Assembly (NCBI RefSeq): GCF_964059055.1
Contig: NZ_OZ060386.1
Coordinates: 527,063 to 559,062, forward strand
Source: Buchnera aphidicola (Neophyllaphis podocarpi)
GTDB lineage: Bacteria; Pseudomonadota; Gammaproteobacteria; Enterobacterales; Enterobacteriaceae
DNA: 32,000 nucleotides
Direction: 5' to 3'
Made by a program: the position numbers and the translations under genes. A model generated the notes under the pieces. That model saw only the letters and a program-made list of their open reading frames with translations. It ran no database searches and had not been told where the DNA came from. Within the stretch, counting starts at the first letter, position 1, and every line of letters starts with the position of its first letter. Below are positions 5,911-17,966 of the stretch, one piece after another.

Positions 5911-5992
5911 ATTTTAATTAAAATTTTATATTGAAAATAGTTTAATTTTTATATACAATAATAATTATTAATATATTTATTTAAAAAAGTTA

Positions 5993-6065
5993 GCGGGAAT
6001 AGCTCAGTTGGCAGAGCGCAACCTTGCCAAGGTTGAGGTCACGAGTTCAAACCTCGTTTCCCGCT
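5993..6065 (+). tRNA. tRNA-Gly (anticodon GCC)
   Basis: I folded the cloverleaf by hand. It has acceptor gcgggaa/ttcccgc, D arm gctc..gagc, anticodon arm caacc-ttGCCaa-ggttg and T arm acgag-ttcaaac-ctcgt, with discriminator T. It is near-identical in layout to E. coli tRNA-Gly(GCC). The 3' CCA is not encoded (the next bases are caa). Confidence 0.95.
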
Positions 6066-6278
6066 CAATTAAATAAATTAATTTAAACTTTTTACAAAAT
6101 TGAATTCTTAAACTAAAAAAATTAATTTTAAAAATTTTAGAAAATATCATATTAAAAATAAAGAATTAAAAACATATCGAAAAAAACTTAAAAATTAATA
6201 TTTTAAATTAAAATGTTATTCAAAAAATAATAAATCATTCACATAAAAAATAATAAATTTTATGCTCAGTATTTAAAA

Positions 6279-6369
6279 ATATAATTAATATTAAGATCGA
6301 GTATTTATCTTTTATTTGAATTTTCTATTCAAATAAAAGATAAATACTCGATCTTAATATTAATTATAT
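6279..6369 (-). terminator. Perfect 43-bp-stem / 5-nt-loop hairpin, probable intrinsic terminator of rpmE (possibly bidirectional)
   Basis: I checked every base pair. Positions 6279..6321 are the exact reverse complement of 6327..6369, and the loop is tttct (6322..6326). On the minus strand the hairpin starts 74 nt after the rpmE stop codon and is followed by TTTT. It lies between the convergent tRNA-Gly and rpmE genes. Confidence 0.6.
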
Positions 6370-6442
6370 AATTATTTACTATTATATATTAATTTTTATA
6401 TAATAAATAAAATAATAATTTAGAATTTGATAAATTTAAATT

Positions 6443-6646
6443 TTATAAAAATTTAAATTTTTTATTAAACTTTTCAACTCTCCCTTTATTATCTAATACA
6501 CGTTGTTTTCCAGTATAAAATGGATGACATTTTGAACAAACATCTATATTTATATTACTAGAAATAGTAGAAAATATTTTTATAATATTTCCGCAGGAAC
6601 ATTTAGCTTTTACTGAAATATATTTAGGATGTATATTTTTTCTCAT
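6443..6646 (-). CDS. rpmE: 50S ribosomal protein L31 (zinc-ribbon type)
   Basis: The 67-aa ORF reads MRKNIHPKY...CSCGN...[13 protein letters not shown]...[10 protein letters not shown]. This is collinear with E. coli L31, and all four zinc-binding cysteines are retained. Confidence 0.95.
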
Positions 6647-6878
6647 AATAATTCCTCGTAGAGATTGAAAAATTTCTTTTAAAAATATATATATAATTGT
6701 TAATAATATTATATTTATGTTATAAATGATAAAATAACATTATATTATTTAAGTACATGTATTTAATAACATTATTAATTATACCAAATAAAAGAGAATA
6801 TAAAGTTGCAAAAAGATTATATAATTAAAATATCAAAAATAAAAAATAAAAAAAAAGATTAAATCTTATATATCTAGA

Positions 6879-7094
6879 ATGAATATTTGCATTATAGCAA
6901 TTGTTATTATAATTCTAATAAGTATAATGTATTATTCTTCATATAATAAAAAAATAAAGAAAAATAAAGAAAAAATACAAAATAAATTAAATAATACTAT
7001 ACCACCAAAACCAATAAACAAATGGAAATATATTGAAGAACTAAACAAAATAGATGTCTATTATAAAAATATAGATAAAATTAATAAAAAATGA
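6879..7094 (+). CDS. ftsN: Minimal FtsN-like protein: one N-terminal transmembrane helix plus the essential FtsN activation peptide, with no SPOR domain
   Basis: In the 71-aa ORF, residues 2-19 are hydrophobic (NICIIAIVIIILISIMYY). Residues 41-59, IPPKPINKWKYIEELNKID, align with E. coli FtsN 75-93, LPPKPEERWRYIKELESRQ, including W83, Y85 and L89. Its position immediately upstream of hslVU matches the E. coli ftsN-hslV-hslU order. No obvious Shine-Dalgarno sequence is present. Confidence 0.6.
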   Translation: MNICIIAIVIIILISIMYYSSYNKKIKKNKEKIQNKLNNTIPPKPINKWKYIEELNKIDVYYKNIDKINKK

Positions 7095-7138: not shown

Positions 7139-7669
7139 GTGACAACAATATTAAGTATACGCCGTAATAAAAAAGTAGTTATTGGTGGTGATGGACAAGC
7201 TACTTTAGGTAATACTATAATGAAAAGTAGTGTGAATAAAATTAGATCTTTATGTAATGATAAAGTAATAGCAGGTTTTGCTGGAAGTACAGCAGATGCA
7301 TTTACATTATTCGAGCTTTTTGAAAAAAAGTTAAGTATGTATCAAGGGCAATTACAACGTTCAGCAATTGAATTAGCCAAAGACTGGAGAACGGACAGAA
7401 TTTTAAGAAGACTAGAAGCTTTATTAGCTGTTGCAGATAAAAAAATTTCACTGATAATATCAGGAAATGGAGATGTAATACAACCTGAAAACGATTTGAT
7501 AGCAATAGGATCAGGCGGTCCTTATGCTCAATCTTCTGCAAAAGCTTTAATAGAAAATACTAAAATGAATGCTAAAAACATTGTAATAAAATCATTAGAA
7601 ATAGCAGCAAGTATTTGTATATATACAAATAATAATTTTACCATTAAAGAATTAGCTTCAGAAAAGTAA
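7139..7669 (+). CDS. hslV: ATP-dependent protease subunit HslV
   Basis: The 176-aa ORF has a GTG start preceded by AAGGA. The N-terminus (M)TTILSIRR carries the catalytic Thr, and the protein is highly similar to E. coli HslV ([38 protein letters not shown]). Confidence 0.96.
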
Positions 7670-7680
7670 GGATTATAAAA

Positions 7681-9012
7681 ATGTCTGAAATGACTCCTGG
7701 AGAAATTGTCATAGAACTTAATAAATTTATTATAGGTCAAGAAAAAGCAAAAAAAGCAGTGGCAATTGCATTAAGAAATAGATGGAGAAGAATGCAATTA
7801 GAAGAAAATTTAAGAAATGAAATAACTCCTAAAAATATTTTAATGATAGGACCTACTGGTGTAGGAAAAACAGAAATAGCAAGAAGATTAGCTAAATTAG
7901 CTAATGCTCCTTTTATAAAAGTAGAAGCAACTAAGTTTACAGAAGTAGGATATGTAGGTAAAGAAGTAGATTCTATCATTAGAGATTTAACAGATGTAGC
8001 AATTAAGATTGTTAGAGTTCAAATTATCGAAAAAAACAAAAACTCTGTAACAGAAAGAGCTGAAGATAGGATATTAGATGTATTAATTCCTACTCCAAAA
8101 AATGATTGGGGTAAATCAGATAAAATTAAAGAACCTAAAGCAACAATTCAATCTTTTAGAAAAAAATTGAGAGAAGGTAAACTTGATAATAAAGATATTG
8201 AAATAAATGTTTCTGCTGTACCTATAGGAGTAGAAATTATGGCTCCTCCAGGAATGGAAGAAATGACAAGTCAATTACAATCTCTATTCCAAAATTTAGG
8301 AGGTAATAAAAAAACAATAAGAAAATTAAAAATTAAAGATGCTATGAAAATATTAATCGAAGAAGAAGCAATTAAACTTGTTAATCCAGAAGAACTTAAA
8401 AGAGCAGCGATAAATTCAGTAGAACAAAATGGTATAGTTTTTATTGATGAAATAGATAAAATTTGTAAAAGAAATTATTCCAATTCTACTGATGTATCAA
8501 GAGAAGGAGTTCAAAGAGATTTATTGCCTCTTGTTGAAGGTTGTACAGTATCAACTAAACATGGATTAGTTAAAACAGATCATATATTATTCATTGCATC
8601 AGGTGCTTTTCAAATATGTACGCCTTCTGATTTAATTCCTGAATTACAAGGAAGATTACCTATAAGAGTTGAATTAGAAGCATTAACTGTAAACGATTTT
8701 GAAAGAATTTTGACTGAACCAAATGCTTCTATTACAGTTCAATATAAAGCATTAATAGCAACAGAGGGAGTAAAAATTAATTTTACAGAAGATGGAATAA
8801 AAAAAATAGCTGAATCTGCATGGAAAGTTAATGAAAATATGGAAAATATAGGAGCAAGAAGATTATACACAATTTTAGAGAAGCTAATGGAAAACATATC
8901 ATTTAACGCAAATGAACTAGTAAATAAAAATGTAGTAATAGATTCTGGTTATGTAAGTAAACATTTAGATAAATTAGTATCTGATGAAGACGTAAGTAAA
9001 TTCATTTTATAG
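7681..9012 (+). CDS. hslU: ATP-dependent protease ATPase subunit HslU
   Basis: The 443-aa ORF has a Walker A motif ([15 protein letters not shown]) and a Walker B motif ([10 protein letters not shown]). It is collinear with E. coli HslU and starts 11 nt after hslV. Confidence 0.97.
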
Positions 9013-16698: not shown

Positions 16699-16842
16699 AA
16701 CAGTCTCTAAAAATTATTTATATAAATTTTTACTTATTTAGTATATTAATACAAAGAATATAATATTAAAATATAATTTTAAATTTTAAATTAAATTTTA
16801 ATTATTAAGTAATTTAATAATATAAAAACAGCAAGAGATAAT

Positions 16843-17160
16843 ATGAACGATTTAGAATTTTATAATATTACTAATAGTTTAATGCTTTCTATAGAAAATA
16901 AAATAGATGAGTATAATAATAAAATAGATATTGAATGTGAAATTAACAATGATGTGATGTATATAAGTTTTAAAAATAACAGTAAAATTATTATTAATAG
17001 ACAAAAATTTTTAAAACAAATCTGGTTAGCTACTCAGATTAATGGCTATCATTTCAATTATTTAAATAAATGTTGGATATGTAATCGTACGGGATTAAAT
17101 TTTTGGAAGATATTAGAAATTTCTTGTTCTAGTCAATCAGGTTATAAAATAATATTTTAA
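16843..17160 (+). CDS. cyaY: Frataxin homologue CyaY (iron-sulfur cluster assembly)
   Basis: The 105-aa ORF is collinear with E. coli CyaY (MNDxEF, DIECEIN, SKIIINRQ, QIWLAT, GYHF). It is divergent from dapF, as in E. coli. Confidence 0.92.
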   Translation: MNDLEFYNITNSLMLSIENKIDEYNNKIDIECEINNDVMYISFKNNSKIIINRQKFLKQIWLATQINGYHFNYLNKCWICNRTGLNFWKILEISCSSQSGYKIIF

Positions 17161-17263
17161 TTCTTTAATTTAATCATTATAATTTTATATAAGCATAATT
17201 TAATATTTTTTAAATAATATTTTTATTTTATTATTTTAAATAATTTAAACATTTTAAATTTTT

Positions 17264-17337
17264 TCGGCGAAAGAGGATTTGAACCTCTGACCTACTGGTC
17301 CCAAACCAGTTGCGCTACCAAGCTGCGCTATTCGCCG
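17264..17337 (-). tRNA. tRNA-Pro (anticodon UGG)
   Basis: I folded the reverse complement by hand as cggcgaa-ta-gcgc-agcttggta-gcgc-a-actgg-ttTGGga-ccagt-aggtc-agagg-ttcaaat-cctct-ttcgccg-a. It is collinear with E. coli proM. CCA is not encoded. Confidence 0.93.
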
Positions 17338-17405
17338 ATGTATAAATATAAACTATTTGTTAATTTTTACAAATTAATACATTTTTTAAAGAATATAAAA
17401 ATTTG

Positions 17406-17479
17406 GGTGGTTAATGGGATTTGAACCCATGACCACTGGAACCACAATCCAGAGCTCTACCTACTGAGCTATAACCACC
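17406..17479 (-). tRNA. tRNA-His (anticodon GUG, with the extra G at position -1)
   Basis: The reverse complement folds as g-gtggtta-ta-gctc-agtaggta-gagc-t-ctgga-ttGTGgt-tccag-tggtc-atggg-ttcaaat-cccat-taaccac-c. G-1 pairs with C73, which is characteristic of tRNA-His. CCA is not encoded (caa follows). Confidence 0.93.
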
Positions 17480-17547
17480 GTTATTTTATAAGATATATTA
17501 TCTGATGTAATTTTTATGAATAAAATATGATATTTTTATTTTATTTA

Positions 17548-17622
17548 TGCGTCTGACAGGATTTGAACCTGTTACCTTTGCCTTCGGAAGACAATGCTCT
17601 ATCCCTTTTAAGCTACAGACGC
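17548..17622 (-). tRNA. tRNA-Arg (anticodon CCG)
   Basis: The reverse complement folds as gcgtctg-ta-gctt-aaaagggata-gagc-a-ttgtc-ttCCGaa-ggcaa-aggta-acagg-ttcaaat-cctgt-cagacgc-a. It is collinear with E. coli argX. CCA is not encoded. Confidence 0.9.
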
Positions 17623-17714
17623 TTATATCAAAAATTAATCTTATTTTTAAGTATAAGAATTATTAATTCTACTCTATTTTTATTTAAAAGTATATATTTT
17701 ATATTAAAAATTTA

Positions 17715-17966
17715 ATGGAATTTCTCATTAATAAATTAGCCATGACAAAAACTAATAATGAATTTTTTGATATGATGAAAAGATCGTAAAATATATTTAC
17801 TAATTATTAGCTAAGTTTATAAATAATAAAATCACCTGAATTCAGGTGATTTTATTATTTATAAACTTAGCTAATAATTAGTAAATATATTTTACGATCT
17901 TTTCATCATATCAAAAAATTCATTATTAGTTTTTGTCATGGCTAATTTATTAATGAGAAATTCCAT
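17715..17966. repeat. Perfect 252-bp palindrome (two 126-bp arms, no spacer) spanning the rho 3' end and its downstream flank
   Basis: I verified the arms block by block. Positions 17715..17840 are the exact reverse complement of 17841..17966, and the centre is cacctgaa|ttcaggtg. The right arm consists of the 51-nt rho 3' flank plus the last 24 codons and stop of rho (17892..17966). The left arm is an inverted copy. The symmetry breaks on both sides at 17714/17967. Confidence 0.97.
17828..17853 (-). terminator. Core intrinsic-terminator-like hairpin at the palindrome centre (candidate rho terminator, symmetric and so bidirectional)
   Basis: The sequence aaaatcacctgaa|ttcaggtgatttt holds the only G/C-containing pairs of the palindrome (cacctg/caggtg). 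It is flanked by a T-rich run (ttttattattt) on either strand and lies 39 nt downstream of the rho stop codon. Confidence 0.6.

Follow-up and report, generated by a model that had tools for sequence, protein, structure and literature searches.

We examined a 32,000-nucleotide stretch of the genome of Buchnera aphidicola from Neophyllaphis podocarpi (hereafter, the window; positions 527,063 to 559,062 of NZ_OZ060386.1). Between rpmE and hslV, the window contains a 71-codon open reading frame (ORF) whose product, MNICIIAIVIIILISIMYYSSYNKKIKKNKEKIQNKLNNTIPPKPINKWKYIEELNKIDVYYKNIDKINKK, is labeled by NCBI only as hypothetical; it is 100% identical to "hypothetical protein RJV68_02600" from the Buchnera of Neophyllaphis varicolor (CP135042). 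An earlier note on this DNA had proposed that the ORF is a miniature ftsN. As that note described, the ORF encodes a transmembrane (TM) helix, then a lysine-rich linker, and then IPPKPINKWKYIEEL (Table 1). The note also placed the ORF where E. coli has ftsN, and this is correct: the order in E. coli MG1655 is priA-cytR-ftsN-hslV-hslU (verified on NC_000913), both priA and cytR are missing from the window, and the ORF lies directly 5' of hslV-hslU on the same strand, with just 44 nucleotides from its stop codon to hslV. Here we report that the ORF descends from ftsN. We also argue that it is probably the downstream part of a larger gene, not a stand-alone minimal gene.

Table 1. Features of the ftsN locus, in coordinates of the window
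Feature	Position	Strand	Description or basis
rpmE	6443..6646	-	5' neighbor of the ftsN ORF
Shine-Dalgarno-like AAGAG	6792..6796	+	9 nucleotides 5' of TTG 6806; direct reading; putative ribosome-binding site
5' segment of ftsN	6806..6862	+	TTG start, QKDYIIKISKIKNKKKD, TAA; frame offset from the 71-codon ORF; three-frame translation
Open in-frame extension KIKKKIKSYISR	6843..6878	+	5' of the ATG; part of the basic juxtamembrane tail; aligns to E. coli FtsN ~23-34
A9 homopolymer	6848..6856	+	Frame junction of the 5' segment and the ORF
71-codon ORF	6879..7094	+	ATG to TGA; 3' three-quarters of shortened ftsN
TM helix ICIIAIVIIILISIMYY	6885..6935	+	Colinear with E. coli FtsN ~37-53 (ungapped profile alignment); inside the long helix of the AlphaFold2 model
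Lysine-rich linker SSYNKKIKKNKEKIQNKLNNT	6936..6998	+	Same length as the TM-to-E spacer of E. coli; gapless alignment
Essential-domain (E-FtsN) motif IPPKPINKWKYIEELNKID	6999..7055	+	Profile alignment
Lineage-specific short C-terminal tail VYYKNIDKINKK and TGA	7056..7094	+	Direct reading of the sequence
hslV	7139..7669	+	3' neighbor of the ftsN ORF
hslU	7681..9012	+	After hslV

The top two matches for the product of the ORF were both of the curated NCBIfam equivalog models for FtsN (E = 3.3e-7 and 7.4e-5; 30.1 bits for NF008179 and 22.4 bits for TIGR02223), and in these alignments, residues 3-56 of the ORF lie on profile positions 37-90. We also collected 80 loci around homologs of HslV, mostly from free-living Enterobacterales; just 3 of them are from Buchnera, because HslV is too conserved for a scan anchored on it to bring in more. 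In every locus from free-living Enterobacterales (about 70 loci), the gene immediately 5' of hslV contains the invariant motif PPKPEERW[RK]YIKEL, and the essential-domain (E-domain) motif of the ORF, PPKPINKWKYIEEL, aligns with this pattern. The published consensus for the E-domain family is (W/Y/L/F)-x-(Y/F/L)-h-x-x-L, in which the leucine is invariant (10.1101/2023.05.12.540521), and the motif of the ORF, with PPKP before it, agrees with this consensus. By profile alignment, the equivalents of the critical residues W83, Y85, and L89 of E. coli FtsN are encoded at 7023-7025, 7029-7031, and 7041-7043, as the earlier note had claimed, and the E. coli peptide that it cited (L75 to Q93) does occur in E. 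coli FtsN, as LPPKPEERWRYIKELESRQ.

From the N-terminal part of 67 ftsN genes that lie directly 5' of hslV in other Enterobacterales, we built our own FtsN profile. The ORF scored 41.0 bits against this profile, while the best of 4,000 composition-matched shuffles (2,000 of which left the TM helix intact) scored 19.6 bits. When all stop-to-stop ORFs in the window were ranked, the other 277 stayed away from the top. BLASTP of the product against E. coli FtsN gave E = 3e-12. The alignment to residues 36-90 of E. coli FtsN has no gaps in its 55 positions, which cover the TM helix, the linker, and the motif, so the distance between helix and motif is exactly that of FtsN; the TM helix is single and N-terminal. 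The resemblance that the earlier note had seen in the letters alone therefore held up both in searches against FtsN families and against shuffles. More general searches were less informative. Pfam gave weak matches driven by the TM helix, a sequence search of PDB gave no match, and the sole match in an exhaustive phmmer search of 1.84 billion representative sequences was the protein from a sister species, which implies that single-sequence searches cannot reach FtsN in a database of that size.

The sequence upstream of the ORF also resembles ftsN. The TTG at 6806 opens MQKDYIIKISKIKNKKK (6806-6859), which matches the cytoplasmic N-terminus of FtsN (MAQRDYV): after the TTG come CAA AAA GAT TAT ATA…, which gives M-Q-K-D-Y-I-I-K-I-S-K-I-K-N-K-K-K before a stop at 6860. 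The beginning, MQKDY, resembles the N-termini of FtsN from E. coli (MAQRDYV) and Arsenophonus (MTQKDYV), and when the spacer was shuffled 20,000 times with its dinucleotides preserved, the pattern [QK][RK]DY[VIL] arose just 46 times (~0.2%). This segment is in a different frame from the ORF, whose stop-to-stop frame is open from 6843. If one A is deleted from the A9 tract, the two are joined and encode a 95-amino-acid protein (6806-7094). Compared with the ORF, the fused product has higher scores against our own profile (49.8 versus 42.6 bits), NF008179 (35.2 versus 30.1 bits), and TIGR02223 (27.7 versus 22.4 bits), and its alignment to TIGR02223 now begins at profile position 3. When the 23 N-terminal residues alone were shuffled, the real order was equaled or beaten in 28 of 3,000 cases (p = 0.009). 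BLASTP of the fused product against E. coli FtsN (E = 3e-13) extends from QRDY, which is paired with QKDY at the N-terminus, to the E-domain, with one 9-residue gap.

Two other Neophyllaphis assemblies bear on the start of the gene. First, the genome of the Buchnera of N. podocarpi in CP135039 has the same A9 tract but has CTA at the position of ATG 6879, and the protein that was deposited for it starts at Met17 and is without the TM helix. In the fused frame, no start codon is lost by the change from ATG to CTA, which simply replaces an internal Met with Leu. Second, a 97-amino-acid "Cell division protein FtsN" (CAL4325756.1) from another Neophyllaphis Buchnera assembly, labeled Neophyllaphis podocarpi, belongs to the 90%-identity cluster of the ORF's product. 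Its sequence, MKLQKDYIIKISKIKNKKKIKSYISRMNICII…KINKK, is that of the fused product plus two N-terminal residues, so the basic tail with QKDY (MQKDYI…KNKKK, 6806-6859) that is out of frame in the window is in frame there. A Shine-Dalgarno-like element precedes 6806, and there is none before 6879. On the basis of these sequence features, ATG 6879 is probably not the real start of ftsN. CAL4325756.1 starts with MKL, which corresponds to ATA AAG TTG in the window (6800-6808) and implies either that ATA was called as the start or that its assembly has an ATG polymorphism; with AAGAG 9 nucleotides upstream, TTG 6806 is the putative start that we favor. CAL4325756.1 is identical to the window over the last 71 residues and differs from the N. 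podocarpi copy in CP135039 at several positions, and the N. podocarpi label is likewise carried by an HslV with 100% identity to that of the window. Either the projects assigned different host labels or there are two strains.

These results change several of the earlier note's claims. It was right that the Q-rich linker and the SPOR domain are gone: the product has no Pfam match to SPOR (PF05036), and we found no remnant of either between the end of the ORF and hslV at 7139. However, it also listed the FtsA-binding tail as missing, and the counterpart of this tail is encoded in the other frame at 6806-6859. Similarly, the view of the ORF as a natural reduction to the essential minimum stands insofar as an ftsN descendant has kept its TM helix and E-domain, but the gene is larger than 71 codons and the supposed start codon reads CTA in the sister species. 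Finally, the note expected such a gene to be missed or annotated as hypothetical, which is true of NCBI, but UniRef and ENA already name its homologs FtsN.

The gene is under purifying selection. Between the two Neophyllaphis copies, in the fused frame, the proportion of synonymous differences (pS) is 0.112 and that of nonsynonymous differences (pN) is 0.015, for a ratio of 0.14 (Fisher p = 0.003); for the same pair, pN/pS is 0.14 in fpr, 0.02 in hslV, and 0.05 in hslU. This implies that ftsN is constrained despite the A9 frame break that is common to both assemblies. Within the Aphis clade, the ratio of nonsynonymous to synonymous substitution rates (dN/dS) for ftsN is 0.22-0.84, with most pairs at 0.22-0.42, and the identity of ftsN (87.9%, with 4% gaps) is close to that of hslV (90.8%) and above that of the flanking noncoding DNA (73-78%, with 12-44% gaps). 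The tail, the TM helix, and the E-domain have been under purifying selection after the loss of SPOR, as expected of a "dwindled" symbiont FtsN.

A profile search with an alignment of Buchnera sequences only identified eight more proteins of 74-83 amino acids. These are from the Buchnera of Aphis aurantii, A. gossypii, A. nerii, and A. helianthi, from a Brachycaudus tragopogonis cluster (with a 74-amino-acid representative and an 84-amino-acid member), and from three further sources (two short contigs and one of 527 kb). All eight are encoded in the rpmE-hslV spacer. NCBI labels the Buchnera orthologs as hypothetical; the name FtsN is used in UniRef and by one submitter to ENA (CAL4326627.1). 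The intact genes from the Buchnera of Aphis and Brachycaudus encode 81-84 amino acids, and all intact orthologs carry an N-terminal tail. The Aphidinae orthologs read MYKNQNKINSMYFKKKKIKFNKYN, TM helix, linker, LPAKPKERWKYIKKLENL, and stop, so that they end three residues past the equivalent of L89; in the Aphis genes, a single frame, which includes an A13 tract, encodes the tail, TM helix, linker, and E-motif. Across 12 Buchnera sequences, nine columns are invariant. Seven of these are in the E-motif (P, P, W, K, Y, I, and L), and they include the equivalents of W83, Y85, and L89. Thus, the ORF and its motif are conserved among those Buchnera spacers that have them, which is the comparison that the earlier note had suggested. 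In the Buchnera of A. glycines, ftsN was missed by gene calling (L085 2688-2934, from the Logan assembly of SRR11509279). This copy has A14 at 2727-2740 where intact Aphis copies have A13, and the same -1 change restores the frame; the extra A may be true variation or may come from a homopolymer error in the assembly.

The gene is present in some Buchnera lineages only. Six-frame profile scans and regular-expression scans found no trace of ftsN between rpmE and hslV in the Buchnera of Pemphigus, Tetraneura, Phyllaphis, Mindarus, and Thelaxes or in two further Buchnera genomes, and a scan of metagenomes for ftsN found the A. gossypii copy again and nothing else. One metagenome-assembled genome (MAG; L016, SMAG_U13190) has a decayed copy at 830-1095. 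Its landmarks are in the correct order: KKDYI, a TM-like stretch in another frame, VPNKIEKY, a TAG at the codon for W83, and QYIKRLEN. Another N-terminal motif, TKDYI, is nearer, and KKDYI is further upstream. This remnant was missed by a read-through hidden Markov model scan, in which stops were treated as X, and was recovered by regular expressions; the order of its landmarks was reproduced in 0 of 20,000 shuffles. In a 541-kb Buchnera genome, a spacer without a trace of ftsN is next to an HslV that was called at 184 amino acids, versus 176 elsewhere, and overlaps hslU by 13 nucleotides (L084 3001-3555); the start of this HslV was probably called too far upstream.

The distribution of ftsN can be compared with that of peptidoglycan synthesis. 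Smith et al. (2022) reported that peptidoglycan genes are kept in the Buchnera of Aphidinae and are absent in Eriosomatinae, Pemphiginae, Phyllaphidinae, Chaitophorinae, and Lachninae; they do not mention ftsN or Neophyllaphis, so their survey supports a correlation at the level of subfamilies only. According to a 2023 review, Aphidinae Buchnera contain ftsL, ftsB, ftsW, and ftsI, with ftsQ and ftsN both at 0%. The presence of the shortened ftsN is correlated with the presence of its presumed targets across these few lineages, with Neophyllaphis lying outside those surveys, and ftsN appears to have been lost in step with peptidoglycan synthesis.

Two side observations concern the erosion of related functions and of ftsN in other symbionts. 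Buchnera of the Aphis clade have an Amidase_3 (amiB-like) gene between orn and rpmE, which was called with 292 amino acids in the A. glycines assembly (L085 1407-2285) and with 137, 244, and 197 amino acids at three other loci (L089 688-1101, L090 348-1082, and L091 469-1062); the varying lengths suggest ongoing erosion. In the window, the corresponding region (5911-6442) contains tRNA-Gly (5993-6066) and no amidase. SPOR domains bind glycans that amidases have denuded, and the decay of the amidase and the loss of SPOR may therefore be connected. Also, an Arsenophonus MAG (L024 3136-3882) and a Sodalis-like MAG (L081, a 694-kb contig) encode shortened but complete FtsN proteins of about 249 and 241 amino acids, the former with PPKR instead of PPKP; these look like intermediate stages in the shrinkage of FtsN.

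As for the rest of the locus, no Rfam family or tRNA overlaps it, and an ORF of 38 codons on the opposite strand (6932..7048) was discarded as a by-product of AT-rich sequence. Scans for promoters and terminators are uninformative in such AT-rich DNA. Elsewhere in the window, a region of 1.2 kb (16699-17891) is without an ORF of at least 110 amino acids and has a cluster of tRNA-Pro, tRNA-His, and tRNA-Arg on the minus strand (17263-17622).

The explanation that we favor, with a probability of roughly 65%, is that the window contains the Buchnera ortholog of ftsN, which has been eroded to about 95 codons (6806-7094) and is split by a one-base frame change at the A9 tract. Left in place are a short, basic cytoplasmic tail with QKDY at its start, one TM helix, a linker, and the E-domain helix after PPKP; the Q-rich linker and SPOR domain have been deleted, like the neighboring priA and cytR. 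An AlphaFold2 model (mean predicted local distance difference test score of 83.5, from a shallow alignment) is compatible with this layout: its first helix (residues 2-66) includes the TM segment and is followed by a break at TIPPKPI, after which another helix begins at KWKYIEEL. The protein would sit in the inner membrane as a type II membrane protein, with its N-terminus in the cytoplasm and its C-terminus in the periplasm. In E. coli, D5 of the tail binds FtsA. The E-domain helix makes contact with both FtsI and the AWI region of FtsL through W83, Y85, and L89 (10.1101/2023.05.12.540521). Since the fused Buchnera protein would keep these tail and E-domain elements, its periplasmic helix is predicted to activate FtsWI through FtsL and FtsI. 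It would do so without the self-recruitment or self-enhancement that SPOR mediates, and in a divisome that lacks FtsQ; the divisome of Buchnera is reportedly also without FtsK, ZipA, and FtsEX. Making the full-length protein would require either a true A8 tract (if A9 is a homopolymer polymorphism or a miscall) or a low level of polymerase slippage.

Several observations weigh against this explanation. One concerns the reading frame: the gene is frameshifted at A9 both in the window's assembly and in CP135039, and since CP135042 (an Illumina NovaSeq assembly) and CP135039 are both from Illumina reads, a miscall is not the obvious cause. A -1 or +2 change is needed to restore the frame, whereas homopolymer slippage in Buchnera is mostly +1, and one transcriptome-wide study found no frame-restoring event, although rescue by transcriptional slippage has been reported for another Buchnera gene. 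The fused product also scores far below the cutoffs of the NCBIfam models (35.2 versus 525 bits for NF008179 and 27.7 versus 107.65 bits for TIGR02223), but such a shortfall is expected for a gene without counterparts to some 70% of each model. The Aphidinae copies have MYKNQNK instead of QKDY, so binding to FtsA through D5 may not be general. The charges around the helix favor neither topology, as the fused form has 6 Lys or Arg residues within 15 residues of the helix on each side. Finally, none of ftsL, ftsB, ftsW, ftsI, or the mur genes lies within the window, and the promoter scan was at background (8 sites versus 8.0 expected).

The frame break could instead mean that the gene was recently inactivated, with a real and unrescued frameshift at A9, in which case the ORF would be a still undecayed remnant of a lost FtsN function. 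Two Illumina assemblies have the same frameshift, genes of Buchnera are often inactivated at homopolymers, slippage that restores the frame was not seen across the transcriptome, and other lineages either lack the gene or have decayed copies with a stop at the codon for W83. However, the fused frame has evolved with pN/pS of 0.14 (p = 0.003) since the Neophyllaphis lineages split, which is the same as for fpr, a functional gene; neither half has any further stops or indels; and a third assembly of the same lineage gives the uninterrupted 97-amino-acid protein. We therefore consider inactivation to be doubtful.

It seems quite unlikely that the ORF functions on its own, as a tailless 71-amino-acid protein translated from ATG 6879 with just the TM helix and the E-peptide. 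Such a protein would not be absurd: the ORF is intact and has an ATG, internal initiation would be the simplest route to a product given the frameshift, and the E-domain helix alone of E. coli FtsN was reported to be necessary and sufficient for division when overexpressed. But the ATG is CTA in the sister species even though the gene from the TTG is under purifying selection, the Shine-Dalgarno-like element is before 6806 and not before 6879, the upstream segment with QKDY and basic residues is conserved and is homologous to the tail of FtsN, and every intact ortholog has such a tail. The charges are also unfavorable. The 71-residue form has no Lys or Arg on the N-terminal side of the helix and 6 on the side of the motif. 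By the positive-inside rule, the more positively charged side of a TM helix tends to be cytoplasmic, so the motif would tend to lie in the cytoplasm. The earlier note had itself named a predicted cytoplasmic location of the motif as grounds for rejecting its proposal.

Lastly, the idea that a low-complexity, AT-rich ORF resembles FtsN by chance, through its hydrophobic and lysine-rich composition, has something to recommend it in the strong compositional bias of the sequence and in the poor results from Pfam, PDB, and phmmer, but it is already refuted by the shuffles (at most 19.6 bits versus 41, even with the TM helix retained), the exact synteny and identical gapless spacing, the independent second landmark (QKDY) in the correct order, and a series of Buchnera orthologs that are conserved at precisely the functional residues.

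If the window contains a shortened and split ftsN, as we favor, how does it compare to known forms of the gene? E. coli FtsN (b3933, 319 amino acids) shares its locus 5' of hslVU, the Q[RK]DY motif and basic tail (encoded in the window, but out of frame with the rest), the single TM helix, the spacing from TM helix to motif, and PPKP..W.YI..L with the equivalents of W83, Y85, and L89. Unlike E. coli FtsN, the window's protein ends 16 residues past the equivalent of L89 and is without the third E-domain helix, the Q-rich linker, and SPOR; its tail is about 10 residues shorter, and its gene is split at A9. The FtsN proteins from the Buchnera of Aphis and Brachycaudus share the rpmE-hslV spacer and the layout of tail, TM helix, linker, and E-motif, while those of Aphidinae differ in having a stop three residues after the equivalent of L89, MYKNQNK in place of QKDY, and an A13 tract that is in frame instead of an A9 tract that is out of frame. 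Other Buchnera genes with frameshifts at poly(A), for which rescue by slippage has been proposed, are similar in that the frame of a conserved gene breaks at a long run of A; in contrast, rescue in the window needs a -1 or +2 change, and its tract is only 9 long.

Shrinkage of ftsN in symbionts is already published. In Serratia symbiotica SCc and STs, ftsN is among the "dwindling genes", with a very small N-terminal portion left (Manzano-Marin and Latorre 2016, PMC5013485), and the authors justified the retention of this part by the sufficiency of FtsN(1-119) in E. coli. Like the Buchnera of Neophyllaphis, this is an aphid symbiont (a co-symbiont) with only the N-terminal part of ftsN, but it is from another genus and no split at poly(A) was reported; we compared the two by their descriptions. 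In the stink-bug symbionts, Pantoea carbekii has 387 nucleotides of ftsN that are intact plus a decayed SPOR region, and Ishikawaella has a 170-amino-acid protein (PMC4350177). There too, the SPOR end is lost or decayed and the N-terminal part is kept, but these remnants are longer and are in gut symbionts.

For Buchnera, we found no published description of an ftsN gene in the literature, even though the databases already name homologs FtsN, and three reports state that ftsN is absent (PMC10591338, PMC4350177, and bioRxiv 10.1101/2024.05.17.594780). The claim that Buchnera lacks FtsN is wrong. Because of this reported absence, models of septation in Buchnera assume a mechanism that is independent of FtsN. 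There is also a lesson for annotation: short, AT-rich genes that are split at homopolymers escape both gene callers and orthology tables.

A more speculative idea, which we rate as improbable in its entirety, is that those Buchnera that retain peptidoglycan divide with the smallest natural FtsN known (81-97 amino acids, with an end only three residues beyond the E-helix in the shortest cases), with no SPOR and no FtsQ, and that its dose depends on how long a slippery poly(A) tract within the gene is (A13/A14 in Aphis and A8/A9 in Neophyllaphis), so that the tract would act as a heritable or transcriptional throttle on division. If this is true, then in nature FtsWI could be triggered by no more than the module of tail, TM helix, and E-domain.

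Overall, the main value of these findings is to correct the record: the Buchnera of Aphidinae and of Neophyllaphis keep a conserved minimal FtsN. This protein is a natural counterpart to the deletion experiments in E. coli, as the tail, TM helix, and E-helix have been kept and the rest has been discarded. Its reduction within a divisome that lacks FtsQ fits a recently proposed model that has FtsL and FtsI as the targets of the E-domain.

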